From Sulfuricurvum sp. (GTDB lineage Bacteria > Campylobacterota > Campylobacteria > Campylobacterales > Sulfurimonadaceae), in contig JBAZTZ010000009.1 of NCBI GenBank assembly GCA_041661705.1, forward strand, positions 9,050 through 73,049: a DNA stretch of 64,000 bases. Reading direction: 5' to 3'. The position numbers and the translations under genes are program-made. Under the pieces are notes generated by a model, which was given only the letters and a program-made list of their open reading frames with translations, did no database searches and was not told the DNA's origin. Of this stretch, positions 50,455 to 59,101 are shown in pieces. How positions within the stretch are numbered: position 1 is the first letter of the stretch; every line of letters begins with the position of its first letter.

Positions 50455-51267
50455 CTACATTAACTTATCAAGAAATTCGTTAATTGTATTTTGTAAAGCG
50501 ACTATATTAAGACCTGCTGCTTCCGCAATTTTAAGTCCTTGAGTAATAGAACGTTCTGACAGTGGCGCATTGATCGGAATAAGATTTTTGATAACATGCA
50601 AAACTGTTGAAAATTCTTTTAACTCCTCAGGTGCCTGATTCGGAGTATCTGAGTATTCAATCATCTGAACAAAATCATGATCAAAGTTCCAATGGGTAAA
50701 AATAGCCGCTGTTACTTCTGCTGTTGTTGATTCTGCATAACTACGTTCTACTATTGAAATATCAAGTGCTGTGTCAATTTCTGATTTAAAATTTGTCGTT
50801 AAATCTTCTTGAATAATTTCACTCGCAATAACTATTTTTCCTGTTTCTTGTAAAAAAGCAGCAAGAAAAAGTTTATCAGCTTTCGCACGATCAATCTGAA
50901 GATACCAACGATATGCCAAACTCCCCTGCATTGAAGAAATTTCAGCGAAACGATCTGAACTGATTCCATAGGGCTCCATATCGACATTCAGAAGCTTTCG
51001 TACCGAGTTGCCTAAACCAATAGAACGAGTCATACTCATTCCAAATAATGAGACAGCTTGCGCAACACTTACGATCTCTCGTCTTAACCCATACAACGGT
51101 GAATTGGCAGCTTTGATCAAATTAGCAACAATCATCGGATCTTTTTCAACCGTCTTTACCAAATCGCTGATAGATGAATTAGGATCATTACAAATCCGTT
51201 GCATATCAATAACTGTTTTTGGAAGTGGTGGTAACGACTTGATACTGTTAATCATAGAACTTTTCAT
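50455..51267 (-). CDS. Stand-alone HDOD-domain protein
   Basis: SLPPLP, DPMIVANLIKAANSPLYG, AVSLFG, FLQETGK (degenerate HD), HWNF. Confidence 0.9.
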   Translation of the reverse strand: MKSSMINSIKSLPPLPKTVIDMQRICNDPNSSISDLVKTVEKDPMIVANLIKAANSPLYGLRREIVSVAQAVSLFGMSMTRSIGLGNSVRKLLNVDMEPYGISSDRFAEISSMQGSLAYRWYLQIDRAKADKLFLAAFLQETGKIVIASEIIQEDLTTNFKSEIDTALDISIVERSYAESTTAEVTAAIFTHWNFDHDFVQMIEYSDTPNQAPEELKEFSTVLHVIKNLIPINAPLSERSITQGLKIAEAAGLNIVALQNTINEFLDKLM

Positions 51268-51350: not shown

Positions 51351-52202
51351 CTACAATGTAATCTGAGTCCCAATACCCTCAGAGGTAAAGAGTTCCAGTA
51401 AAATTGCATGTTCAATCCGTCCGTCAATAATATGAGCTTTTTCTACCCCCCCATCAACTGCTTCGAGACACGCATCCACTTTGGGAACCATTCCGCCACT
51501 AATCGTTCCATCCACTTTTAGAGTTTCTACTTGTGCTTCACTCAATGTTGAAAAAAGCTCTTTTTCTTTATTCAACACACCAGGGGTATCCGTCATAAAA
51601 ATTACCTTACACGCCCCAATCTCTTTGGCAATAAACGAAGCGGCGAGATCGGCATTAATATTGTATCCCGGATGACCGACGATAGGATCAGCACCGATAG
51701 GGGCAATAACGGGGATAAATCCTTCACGCAAGAGATTATGAATCACATCGGCTTTGACGTGCTCTACTCGTCCTGTGAGACCAAACTTGGCTTCATCTTT
51801 GGGTTTAGCCATCAAGAAATGGGCATCTTTCCCGCTAATACCAATTGCTTTGGCTCCATACGAATTGAGTAATGAGGTGATCTCTTTGTTGATCTCACCA
51901 CTAAGAACCATCTCAACAACACGCATCACTTCAGGAGTACTCACTCTCTCACCGTCGATAAACTCGGTTGGGATATTCAAGTCGCTCAAAAGTTGGCTGA
52001 TACGATTTCCTCCCCCATGAACAATGACCACTTTTACCCCAACGAGGTGAAGAAGTACAATATCTTGGGCAAATTTCGCTTTTAGTTCATCCGAACTTTG
52101 CGCCGATCCGCCGTATTTAATCACGACAACTTCATCACGAAACTCTTTGATAAATGGCATCGCATCCATAAGGGTTTTAACGGTTTCAATCTTGCGTTGC
52201 AT
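51351..52202 (-). CDS. argB: Acetylglutamate kinase
   Basis: VIKYGG, VHGGG, NINAD, GGMVPK, AHIIDGR, ELFT..G.GT. Start placed at ATG 52202 by RBS spacing. Confidence 0.97.
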   Translation of the reverse strand: MQRKIETVKTLMDAMPFIKEFRDEVVVIKYGGSAQSSDELKAKFAQDIVLLHLVGVKVVIVHGGGNRISQLLSDLNIPTEFIDGERVSTPEVMRVVEMVLSGEINKEITSLLNSYGAKAIGISGKDAHFLMAKPKDEAKFGLTGRVEHVKADVIHNLLREGFIPVIAPIGADPIVGHPGYNINADLAASFIAKEIGACKVIFMTDTPGVLNKEKELFSTLSEAQVETLKVDGTISGGMVPKVDACLEAVDGGVEKAHIIDGRIEHAILLELFTSEGIGTQITL

Positions 52203-53097
52203 AAACATAATCCTTTACAGTAGTTATTAACTCTTCATCAAGCTCCAAAGAGAGCATTAAGACCGAAAGAGTGAGATTAAAGTGCGCTATTTTAACAAAG
52301 TCTTTCTGAGTAATAAGCAAACTCGTAGCTCCTGTTCGACGAATAATACCTTGAAGCTCATCAAGCGTAAAAAAATGGTGATCTTCAAAATAGATTTTTT
52401 CAGCTACTTCAGGTAAATATGGATTCAATCTCTCAGGACGTGCAATAGCGGTTACCAATATCATACAAGACGTTGGATTCAAGACGGTTACATGACGCGT
52501 AAAGTTCTCCCCTTCTCTCACCCTAATCACTTTTTTACCACTCCACAGTTTTTCACGATATGCACCACTAGGGAGGCAAAAAGTATTAGGGGTTTCAACA
52601 TCGATCAGAAGATCAAGCTTAACAATTCCATGCTTGCCGTATCCATCATCGAGGAACACCATCGTACATCCCCTGCTTTTTGCTTCAATAATAGCAAATT
52701 CACGCTTTTCGCTAACAATCACTACGGCATTGGAAAGTGTTGTAGCATAAAGCATTGCTTCATCACCACTAATAAGAGTATCGCACAAAATAGTGCCATC
52801 TTTGACAACAATCATCCCTTTACTTTGCCTTCCATATCCACGAAGTACAATAGCAGGTCTTTTAAAATGAGAAGCAAGCGCTATGACTAATGGGGTTTTT
52901 CCGCTTCCGCCAACGGTTAAATTTCCGACACTTACGACAGGTATGCCAAATTTCTTGGGGGTACTCAGACGATAACGGATAAAACTAAGTAAACAATAAA
53001 TCCAGCTTAGGGGTAGAAGCGTATAGGAGAAGATTTTTTGCACACGTGAGGGGTGGTAGAGATAACTCTCACCCCACTGGACTAGCGAACGTTTCAA
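52186..53097 (-). CDS. lpxK: Tetraacyldisaccharide 4'-kinase
   Basis: VGNLTVGGSGKTP, LRGYG, GDEA, LDDG, LPSGAYRE, AIARPER, FEDHH, TQKD. Confidence 0.94.
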   Translation of the reverse strand: MKRSLVQWGESYLYHPSRVQKIFSYTLLPLSWIYCLLSFIRYRLSTPKKFGIPVVSVGNLTVGGSGKTPLVIALASHFKRPAIVLRGYGRQSKGMIVVKDGTILCDTLISGDEAMLYATTLSNAVVIVSEKREFAIIEAKSRGCTMVFLDDGYGKHGIVKLDLLIDVETPNTFCLPSGAYREKLWSGKKVIRVREGENFTRHVTVLNPTSCMILVTAIARPERLNPYLPEVAEKIYFEDHHFFTLDELQGIIRRTGATSLLITQKDFVKIAHFNLTLSVLMLSLELDEELITTVKDYVYATQD

Positions 53098-54212
53098 ACG
53101 CGCGTAGACGCTACTTCCAAAATTGCCTTACAAATAGCATCCACCTCTTTATCGCTCAAATCAGCGTAATTGGGGATAGAAAGGACTTGACTAAAATTGC
53201 GCAGTGCCACAGGAAAATCGTTAATACGAAGAGAATATTTCGATTTATAATAGTTCAGTAAATGCAACGGGATATAATGCAATCCTGTTTCAATACCTAG
53301 CGTACTTAATTCACGTGCAAAAGAATCTCTGTTTTTATCAATTTTAACGATATAGAGAGAGAATGAGTGGTCTTCAGCTACTATTGGCAATCGAATATGA
53401 GGAGCCTTCGCTAACTTTTTGTTAAAAATGGCTGCGATAGCTTGTTGACGCGCAATAATCTCATCTTGCTTTTCCAACTGAACTAAAATCATCGCCGCAT
53501 CAAGAGGGCTAATCGTATACTCGCTCCCAATATCACTCACGTCATAAACGTATCCGAGAGCATCATCATCGGTTGAGAGAGCATGATAGCGTAATGACTT
53601 AGCACGCTCAATAATCTCCTCATCATCACTCACCATCATCCCGCCATTACATACATTACGTCGTAAATGAGGACTAAAATCAAAACAGGTAATTGTCGCA
53701 CCAGTAGAACCTATTTTACGCCCCTTATACGTCGCGCCCAAGGCATCAGACGCATCTTCAACAATTTTTACATCGTACATTTTTGCAATTTCATACAAAC
53801 GATTCAAATCAATACTTTGTCCAGCAATATGCGACACAATCACAGCTTTGAGTTTTTTGGATTTATTTTCTGCCAAATATGCGTCTAATTTATCCAAATC
53901 AATGCTAAAAAGATCAGGATTAATATCAATAAAAATTGGTTCCGCATCAAAATGACGCACGACTTCAGGGACAGAGGGGAACGCATTGATCGAACACAAC
54001 ACTTTGTCCCCACGTTTCAAATCAATAGCTAACATTGCCAAATGCAACGCCGATGTACCATGAGAAGTTGCCAACGCATACTTCGCACCGATATAGGACT
54101 CAAAAGCCGACTCTAACTCTTCAACAATATTCGGTGCTTCACCATCAAGCACTTCATCAATCTTCTCACGCTCATCTCCGCCAACGTTAACACGGTAAAA
54201 TGGTATTTTCAT
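53094..54212 (-). CDS. DegT/DnrJ/EryC1/StrS-family protein lacking the canonical PLP lysine
   Basis: TSHGTSALHLAM, EDASDALG, FDFSPHLRRNVCNGG (the Lys position is Leu), G.HYIPLH, LSIP.Y. Confidence 0.88.
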   Translation of the reverse strand: MKIPFYRVNVGGDEREKIDEVLDGEAPNIVEELESAFESYIGAKYALATSHGTSALHLAMLAIDLKRGDKVLCSINAFPSVPEVVRHFDAEPIFIDINPDLFSIDLDKLDAYLAENKSKKLKAVIVSHIAGQSIDLNRLYEIAKMYDVKIVEDASDALGATYKGRKIGSTGATITCFDFSPHLRRNVCNGGMMVSDDEEIIERAKSLRYHALSTDDDALGYVYDVSDIGSEYTISPLDAAMILVQLEKQDEIIARQQAIAAIFNKKLAKAPHIRLPIVAEDHSFSLYIVKIDKNRDSFARELSTLGIETGLHYIPLHLLNYYKSKYSLRINDFPVALRNFSQVLSIPNYADLSDKEVDAICKAILEVASTRV

Positions 54213-54222
54213 AAAAACTCCT

Positions 54223-55023
54223 CTATAAAGTTATATCTCTTGGATAGTTAAAATCATGGTTAATTGTTCGTGATGTCAATTTCGCAATCAGTGGCATTTT
54301 TCGCTTAAACTGGTTTCGGTAAATTCGTGCTATCACCATCTCTACTAGTTCAGGGTCTTCACCTGCTTCTATAAGTTCTTCTTTAGTATAACGTGTTTCG
54401 ACGTATCCTCTTAAAACTCGATCAAGATCAGCGTAGGAATAACCAATTTCGGCTTCATCACTCTGCCCTTCCCATAAATCCGCCGAAGGAGCTTTCGTCA
54501 GTATCGAGGAATTCACCCCCAATGCGTACGCCAACTCAAAGACCTCTGTTTTGTATAAATCACCAATAGGGTTTAAGGCACTTGCCAAATCACCATATAG
54601 TGTCCCGTATCCAAGCATTAATTCACTTTTATTACTGGTTCCCAAAACCAAAGCTTCCTCACGCGCTGATATATCAAACAATGTCACCATACGTAAGCGT
54701 GCCGAAAGATTTCCAACCCGAAGGGGTGACATATCCGTCGTGCAATACGCTCGTAGCATAGTTTCAATACTGTGAGTCTCACAACGAAGGGAAAAGGTTT
54801 CACTCAGCTCATCTGCATCATCCAAACTGCTTTGAGACGAAAACTGAGAGGGCATCTTCACACACAACAGACCATCCCCAAACACCCGATGCGCCAATAC
54901 AGCAACCACTGCTGAGTCAAGTCCTCCACTTAATCCAACCACTACTTTTTTAAAACCTGTTTTGCGTACTTCATTACTCAAAAAATTCTCTAAATGATGG
55001 CTGATTAATTGGTATTTACCCAC
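54223..55023 (-). CDS. nadE: NH3-dependent NAD+ synthetase
   Basis: GLSGGLDS, GNLSARLRM, GTSNKSE, GYGTLYGD, KAPSADLW, NQFKR. Confidence 0.97.
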   Translation of the reverse strand: MGKYQLISHHLENFLSNEVRKTGFKKVVVGLSGGLDSAVVAVLAHRVFGDGLLCVKMPSQFSSQSSLDDADELSETFSLRCETHSIETMLRAYCTTDMSPLRVGNLSARLRMVTLFDISAREEALVLGTSNKSELMLGYGTLYGDLASALNPIGDLYKTEVFELAYALGVNSSILTKAPSADLWEGQSDEAEIGYSYADLDRVLRGYVETRYTKEELIEAGEDPELVEMVIARIYRNQFKRKMPLIAKLTSRTINHDFNYPRDITL

Positions 55024-55131: not shown

Positions 55132-56208
55132 TCAAAACTGAAAAATGGCATCAACATCAGCATCTGTCGCTTCATCAGTGTCATTTTCCAGCCACATATT
55201 AGTGATAAGATGCATATTTCCAATGTTAGAAGCATCAAAAATATTTAATTTACTTTCGTCCCCAGAAGACAAATCATCATGCCATCGACCTAAATCATAA
55301 ACGAAACTTTCCAGTAATAAAAATATATTTTTTACTCGTACTTCATTCTTAGGAAGTGGATAATTCTCTAATCTAGCTGAGAATGCTGACATTGCGACAC
55401 TAAGCTCATCGAAAAAGGTATACATAGAGAGTGTCAATGCGTATTTCTTAAATAATGAAACTAGTAATGAACATGAGTAAACCGCTATATCATTGATATT
55501 GTTGATAATATCAATAACAACCAAATCAATTTCATTGAGAATCTCTTTTAGTTCGGATAAATCATCTTCAATAAAGCTTTTGATCTGCTCTTTCAAACGG
55601 TTGCTATCCACTCTCGAAATGTTTCCCGTAGCTGGCGTAGGACGATGTAGCATATTTTCTTTATTGGCAATAGTCTTCAAGAGACGTAACGATTTTTCAA
55701 GCTGTGCATTTTTTAGTGAGAGTTCATTATTTTGATTTTCTAATCGCAAGTTTAATTCTTCCAAGCGATCTACATGTGCTTCAACAAATTTATGATCACA
55801 TATTGCCATAGAAGTTTTATAAAGAGCTTGATATAGTGACTTTTGCTTAATAGGCTTAGTAATAAAAGCGGAGATTCCCATATCAATAGCTTCTGATAAA
55901 TAACCAGTCTCGTCATGAGCACTAATAATAATGATAGACTGATAGGGAGTTTGCTTTAGCAGCATACGACTTAGGTCAATACCATTCATCCGAGGCATAT
56001 TAATATCCGTTATGACTAAATCGTAAGGGTAAGCATATTCATCAAGGTGATCTTTATATTTCGCTTCCCCTTCTTGTCCATCATACGCGACATCAACCGA
56101 TTTAAAAAAGTTTTCCAAAACTTCTTTCGTACTCTTGGACAAATCTTGGTCATCTTCAACGTATAACACATGTAGATCTTTGCTGTATTCTCGTATTAGC
56201 TTAATCAT
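55132..56208 (-). CDS. Response regulator (REC + coiled coil + uncharacterised helical output domain)
   Basis: VEDD, ITDINMPRMNG (phospho-Asp), ISAH, ITKP. The C-terminal ~150 aa match no HTH, GGDEF or other output domain I recognise. Confidence 0.9.
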   Translation of the reverse strand: MIKLIREYSKDLHVLYVEDDQDLSKSTKEVLENFFKSVDVAYDGQEGEAKYKDHLDEYAYPYDLVITDINMPRMNGIDLSRMLLKQTPYQSIIIISAHDETGYLSEAIDMGISAFITKPIKQKSLYQALYKTSMAICDHKFVEAHVDRLEELNLRLENQNNELSLKNAQLEKSLRLLKTIANKENMLHRPTPATGNISRVDSNRLKEQIKSFIEDDLSELKEILNEIDLVVIDIINNINDIAVYSCSLLVSLFKKYALTLSMYTFFDELSVAMSAFSARLENYPLPKNEVRVKNIFLLLESFVYDLGRWHDDLSSGDESKLNIFDASNIGNMHLITNMWLENDTDEATDADVDAIFQF

Positions 56209-59101
56209 TATTTCCCTTTAATGTAATTTTAAATGAAACACCGTCGTTTTTATTTTTAACATTTAATTTGCCTTTATGATGCCCCTCAATAATCTGCTTG
56301 GACATATATAGACCCAATCCTGTTCCATTTTTTTCACTCTTTGTTGAGAAATAGGGATCAAATATTTTATCAAGTATTTGATCAGGAATTCCACCGCCAT
56401 TATCGCTAATAATAAGAATATTACTTTTAGAGGTAATTTTAATTTGAGGAAAAGAGGTATTTTTTTCCTTAAAATTATCTTGAGCATTTTTAAGAATGTT
56501 GAGAGCTACTTGCATCATTTCACTATCATAAATAGCAAATTGTGTTTCATCCTCATACTCTTCAATAATCTCAATATTATCCACTTCAATTGAAGTCCGA
56601 ATAATTTTAAGTGCTTTATGTACTACCTCTTTAAATGAGCTCATGACTACTTTTTTATCGGGTTTATAAAAATTCCGAAAATCATCAATCGTCATAGTAA
56701 GATTTTCAACGTAATCTTCAATATTGTCAAGTTTATCCATAAAAAAGTGTTTCAATCCCTCTCGTCCCTCTTGTGTATTCAAATCAAAACTTTCGAGTTC
56801 AAGCTTGAGCTTCATATTAAGGGCTGTAGAAGCGATGGAACCTAGAGGTTGTCGCCATTGGTGGGCTATCATGGATATCATCTCACCCATCTGGGCAAGT
56901 CGCGATTGTTGTAGCATTTGTTGGTCTTGCACTAAACGCTCTTTTTTTAGCCTATTCTCTTCGGAAATATCATTAGCAATAAGAAGAAAATTATCGGTAT
57001 CAGGAAGAGCTATGATACTAATTCTCGTTTCGATAATTGTTCCATCTTTTTTTACACATCGTATTTCAATATTGTCAATATACCCATCTTTACTCGCTAT
57101 ATTGAGAGCATAAAGAGCGACTTCCCTATCCTCTTCTAATGTCAACTCCAAACAACTTTGTTTATAAAGTTCTGATTCACTGTATCCCGTCATCTCAAAA
57201 TAAGCTTTATTAGTAAATATGAACATTGTATTTTTATCAACAATCCCAATCGACTCTTTTGTGGCATTAAAGATATTTTCAAGCAGTTTTTTAGATTCTT
57301 GAAGCTCAGAGGTGCGCTTACTAATACTATCTTCTAATTTACTGTTGGCTTGTTTTAATACTCGCTGTCGATACAAAAAAGCGATAAAAATGGTAACAAA
57401 AAATGCTATCATCCACCATGCTGGGGTATAATTTGCGGGGCTGGAATAACTTTTAAGTGTCCAACTTTCCTTAATCTCCTGTACTTTTTCTTTCGGAATA
57501 CTTTGCAGTGTCTTATTGAGAATATTCAATAATAATGGATCATTACGAACTACACCGATACTGCCAGAAATAGGATTGTCTTTTCCAACAAACCCATTTA
57601 CTTTGAGCTTACCAATACCATAATTTTGAATCATCCACTCTGCTGTTTCGTAGGGTGTAGCAATACAGTACGCCTCACCATTCAAAATCTTTTTTGTAAT
57701 TTTGTTCAAGTCGCTACAGACTTCAATGGTGAGTCTAGGATTGTATCGCAATAGAATTTTCTTGAACTGCAGATGTCGGACAAGTATCTTTTTTCGCTCA
57801 AGAATGGAAATATCCCCAATAAAAGGTTGGTTATTATTACTAATAAGTGCCAAATAAGTTGAAATCAAAGGTTGCGACAGTTTTACATTAGGAAACATTT
57901 TTTCCTTTGTACTCGTAACGGAAACTAAGTCACAACGCTTTTCCTTTATATTTTTTAAAAAATCATCATCATTTTTCGAAATAATTGGAATAAAAGTAAT
58001 TCCAAGTTTTTTTGCGATAATTGAATATATATCAGCAACGATGCCAGTATGAATACCATCTTTTGTCCCATCTATTGGGAATAAATCGGGTTGAATACAA
58101 AGTTTCAACTCCTTTTTTTGTTCTAAATAGGCATGTTCACCCCCATTCAAAACAAGGATAGTTGATTCTTTGAATAGCATATGCTTAAGATTTAATGGTG
58201 TTTTTATAAACCCTGAAACATTATAGATATCGTAGATTCGTTGTAATTTTTCCGTCTCAATATCTCCAATATTTTTAGTTCCTGAGTATGCCAATTCTTT
58301 AAGGGCATTGGCTTCAAAAATAAGTGCTTCCCGAGATTTATTTTGTGTATTGTATTCGCGTATAATCACATCTACAGCTTCATCGATATGGCTAAAAGCA
58401 TATTCCCATCCGCGAAGAGACGCGTTGGTAAATTCCAATGCACGTGCGTGATGTTTTTCCGCTTCATCGTAAGAGGTAAATAAAATGTCATTATAAAAAT
58501 CAAATCCATATTTTTTAGGATCAAAAATAGTATATTTAACTCCACGTTCTCTTAGTAGAAAGGGCTCATTCGATTCGTATGCCATCATAATGTCTGTCTT
58601 CTTATTTATAAGATCATTAACATCAAATGAATCTTTAAGATATATTAGATCTTTGGCTTGAATCCCTTCTCTATTCATCATCGCATACAAGGCAACAGCA
58701 ACATCTGTCCCGGGAACCGTCATGATTTTTTTCCCTTTTAAATCTTTTATCGTTGATATGTTAGACTCTTTAGTCGTTAAAAAAATTAAAGGGGAGGATT
58801 GAAGAATTGAAGCAAGTAGTTTAATTGGCTTACCATTACTGGCATCGATAATTAAGGAGGAACCTCCGATTCCATAGGTAGACTTTTTATGGATGACTTC
58901 ATTGGCTATATTCAATCCATAACTATAAGGCTTAATCTCTACTTCTAAGCCAGCATCCGAATAATAACCCTTTTCTTTTGCCATATAGTAACCAGCGAAT
59001 TGAAACTGATGTAACCACAGAAGCTGTAGTGAAATCTTTTCAGTAGCGTATGAGGATAAGAAAAGCATTGATATAACAAGTATAAGTCTAAAAATTATCA
59101 A
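56201..59101 (-). CDS. Membrane sensor histidine kinase (NMT1/THI5-like PBP + family-3 PBP + TM + PAS + HisKA/HATPase)
   Basis: WLHQFQFAGYYMA.EKGYY NMT1-like start, second PBP, TM WWMIAFFVTIFIAFLY, PAS (N.AY..MTGYS), IAHQWRQPL, NILKNAQD, DNGGGI, FDPYFSTK, GTGLGL. Confidence 0.93.
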   Translation of the reverse strand: MIIFRLILVISMLFLSSYATEKISLQLLWLHQFQFAGYYMAKEKGYYSDAGLEVEIKPYSYGLNIANEVIHKKSTYGIGGSSLIIDASNGKPIKLLASILQSSPLIFLTTKESNISTIKDLKGKKIMTVPGTDVAVALYAMMNREGIQAKDLIYLKDSFDVNDLINKKTDIMMAYESNEPFLLRERGVKYTIFDPKKYGFDFYNDILFTSYDEAEKHHARALEFTNASLRGWEYAFSHIDEAVDVIIREYNTQNKSREALIFEANALKELAYSGTKNIGDIETEKLQRIYDIYNVSGFIKTPLNLKHMLFKESTILVLNGGEHAYLEQKKELKLCIQPDLFPIDGTKDGIHTGIVADIYSIIAKKLGITFIPIISKNDDDFLKNIKEKRCDLVSVTSTKEKMFPNVKLSQPLISTYLALISNNNQPFIGDISILERKKILVRHLQFKKILLRYNPRLTIEVCSDLNKITKKILNGEAYCIATPYETAEWMIQNYGIGKLKVNGFVGKDNPISGSIGVVRNDPLLLNILNKTLQSIPKEKVQEIKESWTLKSYSSPANYTPAWWMIAFFVTIFIAFLYRQRVLKQANSKLEDSISKRTSELQESKKLLENIFNATKESIGIVDKNTMFIFTNKAYFEMTGYSESELYKQSCLELTLEEDREVALYALNIASKDGYIDNIEIRCVKKDGTIIETRISIIALPDTDNFLLIANDISEENRLKKERLVQDQQMLQQSRLAQMGEMISMIAHQWRQPLGSIASTALNMKLKLELESFDLNTQEGREGLKHFFMDKLDNIEDYVENLTMTIDDFRNFYKPDKKVVMSSFKEVVHKALKIIRTSIEVDNIEIIEEYEDETQFAIYDSEMMQVALNILKNAQDNFKEKNTSFPQIKITSKSNILIISDNGGGIPDQILDKIFDPYFSTKSEKNGTGLGLYMSKQIIEGHHKGKLNVKNKNDGVSFKITLKGNND

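Follow-up and report, generated by a model that had tools for sequence, protein, structure and literature searches.

What is the role of a DegT-family "aminotransferase" that has no Schiff-base lysine and whose gene runs into that of a lipid A kinase? This question is raised by a stretch of DNA of 64,000 nucleotides from Sulfuricurvum sp. (NCBI GenBank assembly GCA_041661705.1, contig JBAZTZ010000009.1, positions 9,050 to 73,049 of the forward strand), which as a whole is called the window here and in which positions are counted from the first letter. The protein in question, named X throughout, is the product of the open reading frame (ORF) at 53094..54212 on the minus strand; it starts with ATG, has 372 residues and adopts the DegT/ArnB fold without the Schiff-base lysine. 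The original prediction left it between a pseudo-enzyme and a dehydratase resembling ColD and E1. Based on the results presented below, X is very probably not a Schiff-base transaminase, and it is close to certain that it has a conserved, selected function. There is about an even chance that X is a repurposed DegT/ArnB-fold protein, no longer a Schiff-base, pyridoxal phosphate (PLP)-dependent sugar aminotransferase, which has a binding or scaffolding role together with LpxK.

The membership of X in the family is seen at the level of both sequence and model. The Pfam profile DegT_DnrJ_EryC1 (PF01041) matches X with 272 bits (E 9e-81), residues 28-364 corresponding to profile positions 24-359 of 360. 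The AlphaFold2 model has a pLDDT of 89.9 and a pTM of 0.88, and residues 212-228 alone fall below 50. In Foldseek searches, the best matches of this model are ArnB structures (TM 0.88, 28% identity), the TM scores to ArnB, perosamine synthase, WbpE, PseC and DesV lie at 0.87-0.89, and the fold-type I two-domain architecture superposes on the solved members. Among the PDB sequences, ArnB is again the best match (E 1.7e-50), and ColD (3gr9) and E1 (3bb8) follow at 1e-14 to 1e-19. On the other hand, X stays below every NCBIfam equivalog cut-off: the closest equivalog model, PseC (TIGR03588), gives 258.0 against 423.5, and ArnB (NF008658) gives 209.2 against 631.

The loop that should carry the catalytic lysine reads ITCFDFSPHLRRNVCNGGMMV, that is, FDFSPH, then Leu183, Arg184 and Arg185, then NVCNGG. 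The whole former Lys loop comprises residues 177-191 (FDFSPHLRRNVCNGG; 53640..53684, minus strand, like all features of X given below). Leu183 (TTA, 53664-53666) occupies the Schiff-base Lys column and His182 (53667-53669) precedes it; Arg184 (53661-53663), which is Lys in most Sulfurimonas-type orthologues, and Arg185 (53658-53660) follow. Leu183 is placed under the Lys column by HMMER alignment to ArnB K188A (4oca), by HMMER alignment to GDP-perosamine synthase (3bn1) and by MAFFT alignment with 95 canonical homologues, all 95 of which have Lys in that column, so the Leu with a His just before it, as originally predicted from the letters, is borne out. In a gapped HMMER alignment to 1mdo, the register is shifted by two residues and Arg185 comes under ArnB K188, which still leaves no Lys; in fact, residues 169-208 of X contain no Lys in either register. 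A Lys elsewhere that might replace the catalytic one was sought by sequence alone, and no clade-conserved Lys was found within the loop; K120, K293 and K325 are conserved in the clade, but they lie in segments not known as cofactor contacts. All 23 species genomes of the Sulfuricurvum type that were examined share the HLR loop, and the loss of the Lys is therefore not a sequencing error.

The original prediction had also left room for a loss confined to this strain, with orthologues that keep the Lys. For the clade as a whole, this is not the case. In a FastTree phylogeny of 155 sequences, all 60 Lys-less sequences group together (support 1.0) to the exclusion of every canonical one, and this monophyletic Lys-less group of X-type proteins extends over 122 of the 201 sampled genomes of the phylum and 32 of the 45 genera. 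All traceable named relatives of X belong to Campylobacterota. The motif P-H-L-[K/R] is found in 120 close homologues and in 79 of 80 species-representative loci; the Sulfuricurvum-type genomes (at least 79% identity) all have HLR (23/23), and the Sulfurimonas-type genomes have HLK (47) or HLR (9), where HLK means a Lys one position downstream of the canonical column at the place of the Sulfuricurvum Arg. A basic residue, Lys or Arg, thus stands at position 184 in each of the 79 Sulfurimonadaceae loci read, and this free exchange fits an electrostatic role rather than imine chemistry. In other Campylobacterales families, orthologues at 42-62% identity, including Helicobacter winghamensis- and Campylobacter hominis-type proteins, have loops such as QSNYS, QVQHA, LDAFNP, NSSIN, HKRF and HRYH with no common pattern, and most other genera have neither a Lys in the loop nor a basic residue at the equivalent of position 184. 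Conservation of His182 is limited to a few families, chiefly Sulfurimonadaceae; the others have Gln, Asn, Asp or Ser at this position. In three loci of one genus (L021-L023, in genomes G032, G014 and G040), the loop is FSFNPHKRFTTNNGG or FSFNPHKQKK and the canonical column holds a Lys, and a congener (L018) has HRYH; this Lys either was left over from the ancestral loop or arose by chance in an AT-rich genome.

The lysine is not the only catalytic feature concerned. Sugar aminotransferases contact their cofactor through the catalytic Lys, an Asp to N1, a His to O3' and an aromatic residue on the ring, and further through a Ser and a Thr on the phosphate and a Glu/Gly via water, and they have a Lys/Asn and a His for the amino donor (PMC5936713). 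These positions were compared between 95 canonical and 49 clade sequences with ArnB numbering as the reference. The Schiff-base position (K188) is Lys in 100% of the canonical sequences, and in the clade it is Leu in 16, Val in 6, Ser in 5 and Met, Arg and Lys in 3 each. The phosphate Ser (S183), kept in 93% of the canonical sequences, is in the clade Ser in 19, Asn in 9, Gln in 7, Arg in 6 and Asp in 4, and is Asp178 in X. The water-mediated Glu (E194) of the EGG motif, canonical in 92%, is replaced by Asn in 27, Ser in 9 and Thr in 7 clade members and by Asn189 in X. The O3' ligand (H163; His in 71, Gln and Glu in 9 each and Cys in 6 of 95) is not kept either: the clade has Asp in 16, Asn and Arg in 7 each, Glu in 6 and His in 3, and X has Asp156 (53745..53747). 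At the position of the partner-subunit Lys/Asn that binds the amino donor (K241; Lys in 54 and Asn in 38 of 95), the clade has Lys in 32, Asp in 9 and Glu in 7, and X has Glu231 (53520..53522). The N-terminal loop Gly (G38), canonical in 98%, is variable in the clade and is Pro27 in X. The SGW(I/L)TxGP loop around it has lost 3-5 residues and shows no conservation in any of the clade members shown; its shortened remnant in X is residues 22-30 (LDGEAPNIV; 54123..54149). In DegT structures, this loop contributes to the substrate site of the partner subunit.

Part of the cofactor site is retained. Asp153 of the EDASD motif (53754..53756) aligns with ArnB D160, which binds N1 of PLP, as the original prediction had it, and is Asp in 48 of 49 aligned clade members. 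Thr53, equivalent to ArnB T64, is kept in 41 of 49, and the PLP-stacking position is aromatic in 48 of 49 (Phe in 29, His in 11, Tyr in 8), with Phe78 of X at the place of ArnB W89. A very diverged X orthologue at 35% identity (L134, G008:C20:7604-8692), whose gene stands stop-to-start with lpxK, has Gly in place of the near-invariant Asp (VEGFGA) and no basic residue in the loop.

What the clade conserves lies elsewhere. By sliding-window entropy, the Lys loop (residues 180-189) is the 13th and the N-terminal loop the 7th most variable of 363 clade windows; for the same windows in the canonical enzymes, the Lys loop is the 34th most conserved of 363 and the N-terminal loop ranks 137th. The most conserved blocks of the clade are RHFDAEP (84-93), LKRGDK (64-73), KNRD (290-299), YxYDV (219-228) and YYKSKY (318-327), and all five are variable in the canonical enzymes, so that the pattern of conservation is inverted. 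The first-ranked block (residues 84-93, VVRHFDAEPI; 53934..53963) has an entropy of 0.41 in the clade against 2.11 in the canonical enzymes, and its R86, F88 and D89 are invariant in 49 of 49 clade sequences. The C-terminal block HYIPLHLxxYYKxKY (residues 309-327, TGLHYIPLHLLNYYKSKYS; 53232..53288) is almost invariant, with H312 in 45, P315 in 48, H317 in 44 and Y321, Y322, K325 and Y326 in 48 each of 49. By alignment with the contacts described for the family (PMC5936713), this block would sit approximately at the sugar-diphosphate groove, and Asn76 (beside the stacking aromatic), Asp153, the 219-228 loop and H312-Y313 probably lie in or beside cleft-forming segments.

Selection on the gene is strong. 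Against the closest species genome (L040, dS 0.70), the ratio of nonsynonymous to synonymous substitution rates (dN/dS) is 0.054 for X, 0.115 for lpxK, 0.086 for nadE and 0.027 for argB, that is, purifying selection is stronger on X than on lpxK or nadE. Given this ratio and the presence of X across most of the order, strain-specific decay is rejected. The four other DegT paralogues of the same genome all keep the canonical Lys loop; two very similar ones of the FSFYPTKNLGALGDAGA type stand on separate contigs (L002 and L003; G000:C4:144207-145220 and G000:C12:35965-36978), and the others are PseC-like (L001) and WecE-like (L004). With catalytic positions lost or degenerate clade-wide under selection that is still very strong, the pseudo-enzyme alternative of the original prediction is the one favoured. 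The dehydratase alternative is weakened, because His182 precedes the Lys column and varies by family, and because X is far nearer to ArnB/PseC than to ColD/E1.

The second feature of the locus is the link to lpxK, the gene of the tetraacyldisaccharide-1-P 4'-kinase (52186..53097, minus strand, 303 residues; Pfam PF02606, 2.5e-44). The stop codon of X (TGA, 53094-53096) overlaps the start codon of lpxK (TTG, 53095-53097) in the tetranucleotide TTGA (53094..53097) within the order nadE-X-lpxK-argB; the original prediction had described this overlap, which is upheld by the ORF ends and the Pfam matches of the neighbours. The coupling is real, and the orthologue loci across Campylobacterales show it to be far more general than was then known. 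In each of 30 diverse Campylobacterales loci, the gene directly after X is lpxK, and this also holds for those Sulfurimonadaceae loci whose flanks are long enough. The distance from the X stop to the lpxK start, estimated with approximate start codons over 104 loci, has a median of -4 nt, with overlap in 64 and 0-20 nt in 38. The pair is kept under at least three flanking contexts, among them gltX|X-lpxK-hypothetical in a Helicobacteraceae metagenome-assembled genome and nadE-X-lpxK|accC in another lineage; nadE was not found in the upstream flank of about 1.5 kb in several loci of one family (f8). Even two lineages in which X has only 32-35% identity still have it in front of lpxK. In X-less genomes, which we take to be H. 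pylori-like, C. jejuni-like and one further family, nadE abuts lpxK directly and leaves a clean empty site; since these lineages lost X cleanly, its function would be dispensable in some lineages. In one distant lineage, lpxK of the nadE-X-lpxK order appears as two ORFs of 95 and 185 residues, both matching PF02606 (L127:2086-3012 and L128:1327-2253); the same split occurs in two independent assemblies and may reflect a frameshift, a gene divided in two or programmed recoding.

Comparison with known systems places X beside the sugar aminotransferases ArnB (1mdo, 4oca, 8snj) and PseC, which are its best matches in sequence and structure and share its length, domain order and C-terminal HxxPxH...YY block. 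Like the role proposed here for X, that of ArnB belongs to the lipid A pathway. The two differ in that Leu183 stands for the Schiff-base Lys, the SGWxTxGP loop is absent, and H163, S183, E194 and K241 of ArnB are replaced by Asp, Asp, Asn and Glu, respectively. In addition, X scores far below the equivalog cut-offs of both ArnB and PseC, no arn or pse genes lie nearby, and the invariant blocks specific to its clade are absent from the canonical enzymes. ColD and E1/AscC/RfbH are DegT-fold proteins that naturally do without the Schiff-base Lys, as X does. They are pyridoxamine phosphate (PMP)-dependent 3-dehydratases with a conserved catalytic His in the Lys position and a retained cofactor phosphate site, whereas X has Leu in that column, with its His at -1. 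GnnB is reportedly another DegT-family protein linked to lipid A synthesis. It is the UDP-GlcNAc3N transaminase for 2,3-diamino lipid A, an active, Lys-containing enzyme that works with the oxidoreductase GnnA; X, in contrast, lacks the Lys, and nadE-X-lpxK-argB contains no oxidoreductase gene. A Lys-less sugar-aminotransferase homologue is also found in Ser4 of the Ser4/Ser5 (SerTA) heterotetramer of Serratia sp. ATCC 39006, for which a conserved non-catalytic role is described (PMC11726168). Ser4 is truncated at both ends and encoded in tandem with its catalytic partner in a secondary-metabolite cluster (PMC11726168), whereas X is full length, has no adjacent paralogue in the inspected loci, is spread over most of an order and is tied to lpxK.

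Based on the results presented above, the following course of events may be proposed. X and LpxK would be made from one transcript by coupled translation. X, probably as a dimer, would act as a binding protein, and its old active-site cleft, now remodelled, may hold an anionic ligand resembling a sugar phosphate or nucleotide sugar, or LpxK itself. In this way X might support or regulate lipid A synthesis at the step of 4'-phosphorylation. The Lys or Arg at position 184 in Sulfurimonadaceae could be a charge contact with the putative anionic ligand; in Sulfuricurvum, where it is Arg, it cannot form an imine. A binding or scaffolding role with LpxK is favoured because of the putative coupled translation, the invariant gene pairing, the ancestry in a C4-specific UDP-sugar enzyme and the charge of K/R184. 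A basic membrane-binding surface is not supported, as X is acidic (pI 5.2, net charge -14). That X senses a sugar nucleotide is speculation. A more specific form of the proposal, unlikely as a whole, is that X is a dedicated LpxK partner derived from an ArnB/PseC-type UDP-sugar aminotransferase, a cofactor-free sensor or substrate-presenting subunit whose old cleft would take up a UDP-sugar or the sugar-phosphate head group of a lipid A precursor, and which would tune or assist 4'-phosphorylation and be held at a fixed ratio to LpxK by translational coupling in most Campylobacterales. We know of no described protein partner of LpxK.

Several observations weigh against a non-catalytic partner of LpxK. 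The neighbours nadE and argB are just as old and are unrelated in function, and because they clearly do not act on lipid A, adjacency to lpxK alone is weak support. A distant relative (L120, 427-3303) has the sole X-type gene found not to be followed by lpxK; the order there is a DUF455 gene, X, an argB-like amino-acid kinase gene and then threonine synthase. Between X-containing and X-less genomes, LpxK does not differ systematically in sequence, apart from a single weak, uninformative column, and no X-LpxK fusion was met by chance in the loci examined, where no systematic search was made. The very low dN/dS and the many invariant charged residues fit a true enzyme as well, and the retained Asp153, Thr53 and stacking aromatic are what would be expected if a pyridoxal-type cofactor were still bound. 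One candidate fusion (G101, a 482-residue frame) was rejected as upstream read-through, nadE, X and lpxK being separate genes there.

A possible, if rather unlikely, reading is that X is still an enzyme, which would bind PMP or PLP non-covalently, or another cofactor, without an imine-forming Lys and carry out a dehydration of the ColD/E1 type or a new reaction on a sugar or lipid A precursor. The retention of most of the N1 Asp, phosphate Thr and aromatic set speaks for this, as do the His just before the Lys column in X, the almost invariant cleft-lining blocks YxYDV and HYIPLH, an enzyme-like dN/dS of 0.05 and the existence of Lys-less PMP dehydratases in the superfamily, two of which (3gr9 and 3bb8) are among the PDB matches of X. 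However, no residue of the Lys loop is conserved clade-wide: His182 gives way to Gln, Asn, Asp or Ser, and hydrophobic residues (Leu, Val, Met or Phe) predominate in the Lys column. Furthermore, SGWxTxGP, the nucleotide-sugar loop, is missing, X has Asp in place of the phosphate-site Ser and Glu in place of the partner-subunit Lys/Asn, one orthologue lacks even the N1 Asp, and X is much nearer to ArnB/PseC than to ColD/E1. It is very unlikely, on the other hand, that X joins one of the genome's canonical DegT aminotransferases, such as the PseC-like one, in a hetero-oligomer as the non-catalytic subunit and gives residues to the active site of this partner, as Ser4 does to that of Ser5. There is a precedent in Ser4, which lacks the Lys and assembles with Ser5 into an active heterotetramer (PMC11726168), and in the dimers of DegT enzymes both subunits contribute to the active sites (PMC11726168, PMC5936713). 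PseC is the nearest equivalog model of X, and each of the 12 X-containing genomes tested carries one or more canonical DegT genes, X being the sole DegT member in none of them. Nevertheless, the inspected loci show no canonical DegT gene beside X, and what adjoins X everywhere examined, except in L120, is lpxK; X is full length where Ser4 is truncated, and the SGWxTxGP loop that would reach the partner is deleted and variable. H. pylori and C. jejuni run the PseC pathway, and two groups without X (g17 and g13) are perhaps these species, which would then also count against a PseC partnership. The tandem two-domain DegT proteins P0131, P0138 and P0154, considered as a hint of a pseudo-heterodimer, have canonical Lys-containing sequences in both halves and are irrelevant here.

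It is scarcely credible that X is an ordinary sugar aminotransferase with a register-shifted Lys, possibly a GnnB-like one for GlcN3N lipid A, or a decaying gene. An aminotransferase could be read from the HLK loop of many Sulfurimonas orthologues and from the three orthologues with a Lys in the canonical column, but X and all 23 Sulfuricurvum-type genomes have Arg, which is unable to form an imine, the loops of most other genera are without any Lys, the cluster has no oxidoreductase partner, and several other hallmark residues are lost. The register-shifted Lys is rejected for X because the loop is HLR throughout the Sulfuricurvum-type genomes and a basic residue is missing at this place in most other genera, and decay is excluded by the dN/dS of 0.05 and the conservation across most of the order. 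The repurposed fold with a role beside LpxK is kept as the preferred reading.

The remaining genes of the cluster lie on the same strand. The first is nadE (54223..55023), which encodes a single-domain NAD synthase of 266 residues (Pfam PF02540, 5.9e-75); its stop codon TAG (54223-54225) is merged with the ribosome-binding site of X in TAGAGGAG (54218..54225), 5 nt before the ATG. The last is an argB-like amino-acid kinase gene of 285 codons (51351..52208; Pfam PF00696, 2.4e-47), whose frame shares 23 nt with the 3' end of lpxK. Directly downstream of argB follow a gene for an HDOD-domain protein of 270 residues (50455-51267, minus strand) and then polA. Upstream of nadE stands a 358-residue response regulator (55132-56208, minus strand) with a Pfam match in the receiver domain only; its C-terminal part of about 230 residues matches no Pfam family. 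The 966-residue ORF at 56201-59101 (minus strand) is sensor kinase-like by sequence and overlaps the response regulator ORF by 8 nt.

Two Lys-less DegT forms are known, the His-bearing PMP dehydratases and the truncated Ser4. X fits neither, because it is full length, has no conserved replacement residue, occurs in most of the sampled Campylobacterales and is tied to lpxK. A literature search on DegT proteins with lpxK, Lys-less sugar aminotransferases, pseudoenzyme aminotransferases and LpxK of Campylobacterota, the coverage of which was incomplete, gave no account of the X clade. Those orthologues for which a source name could be traced go under "DegT/DnrJ/EryC1/StrS family aminotransferase", "perosamine synthetase" or "dTDP-4-amino-4,6-dideoxygalactose transaminase", just as the original prediction expected of automated annotation. 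These functional names are almost certainly wrong for the clade, and the annotated aminotransferase function is probably wrong for X. X is absent from the groups taken to be those of H. pylori and C. jejuni, which may explain why it has apparently not been studied. In general, the clade is a clean and large natural case of a PLP enzyme fold re-used after catalytic loss with its conservation inverted, of which few are documented for fold-type I. If the link to lpxK is functional, X would add a new layer to lipid A synthesis in a phylum that holds both important pathogens and environmental sulfur oxidisers.

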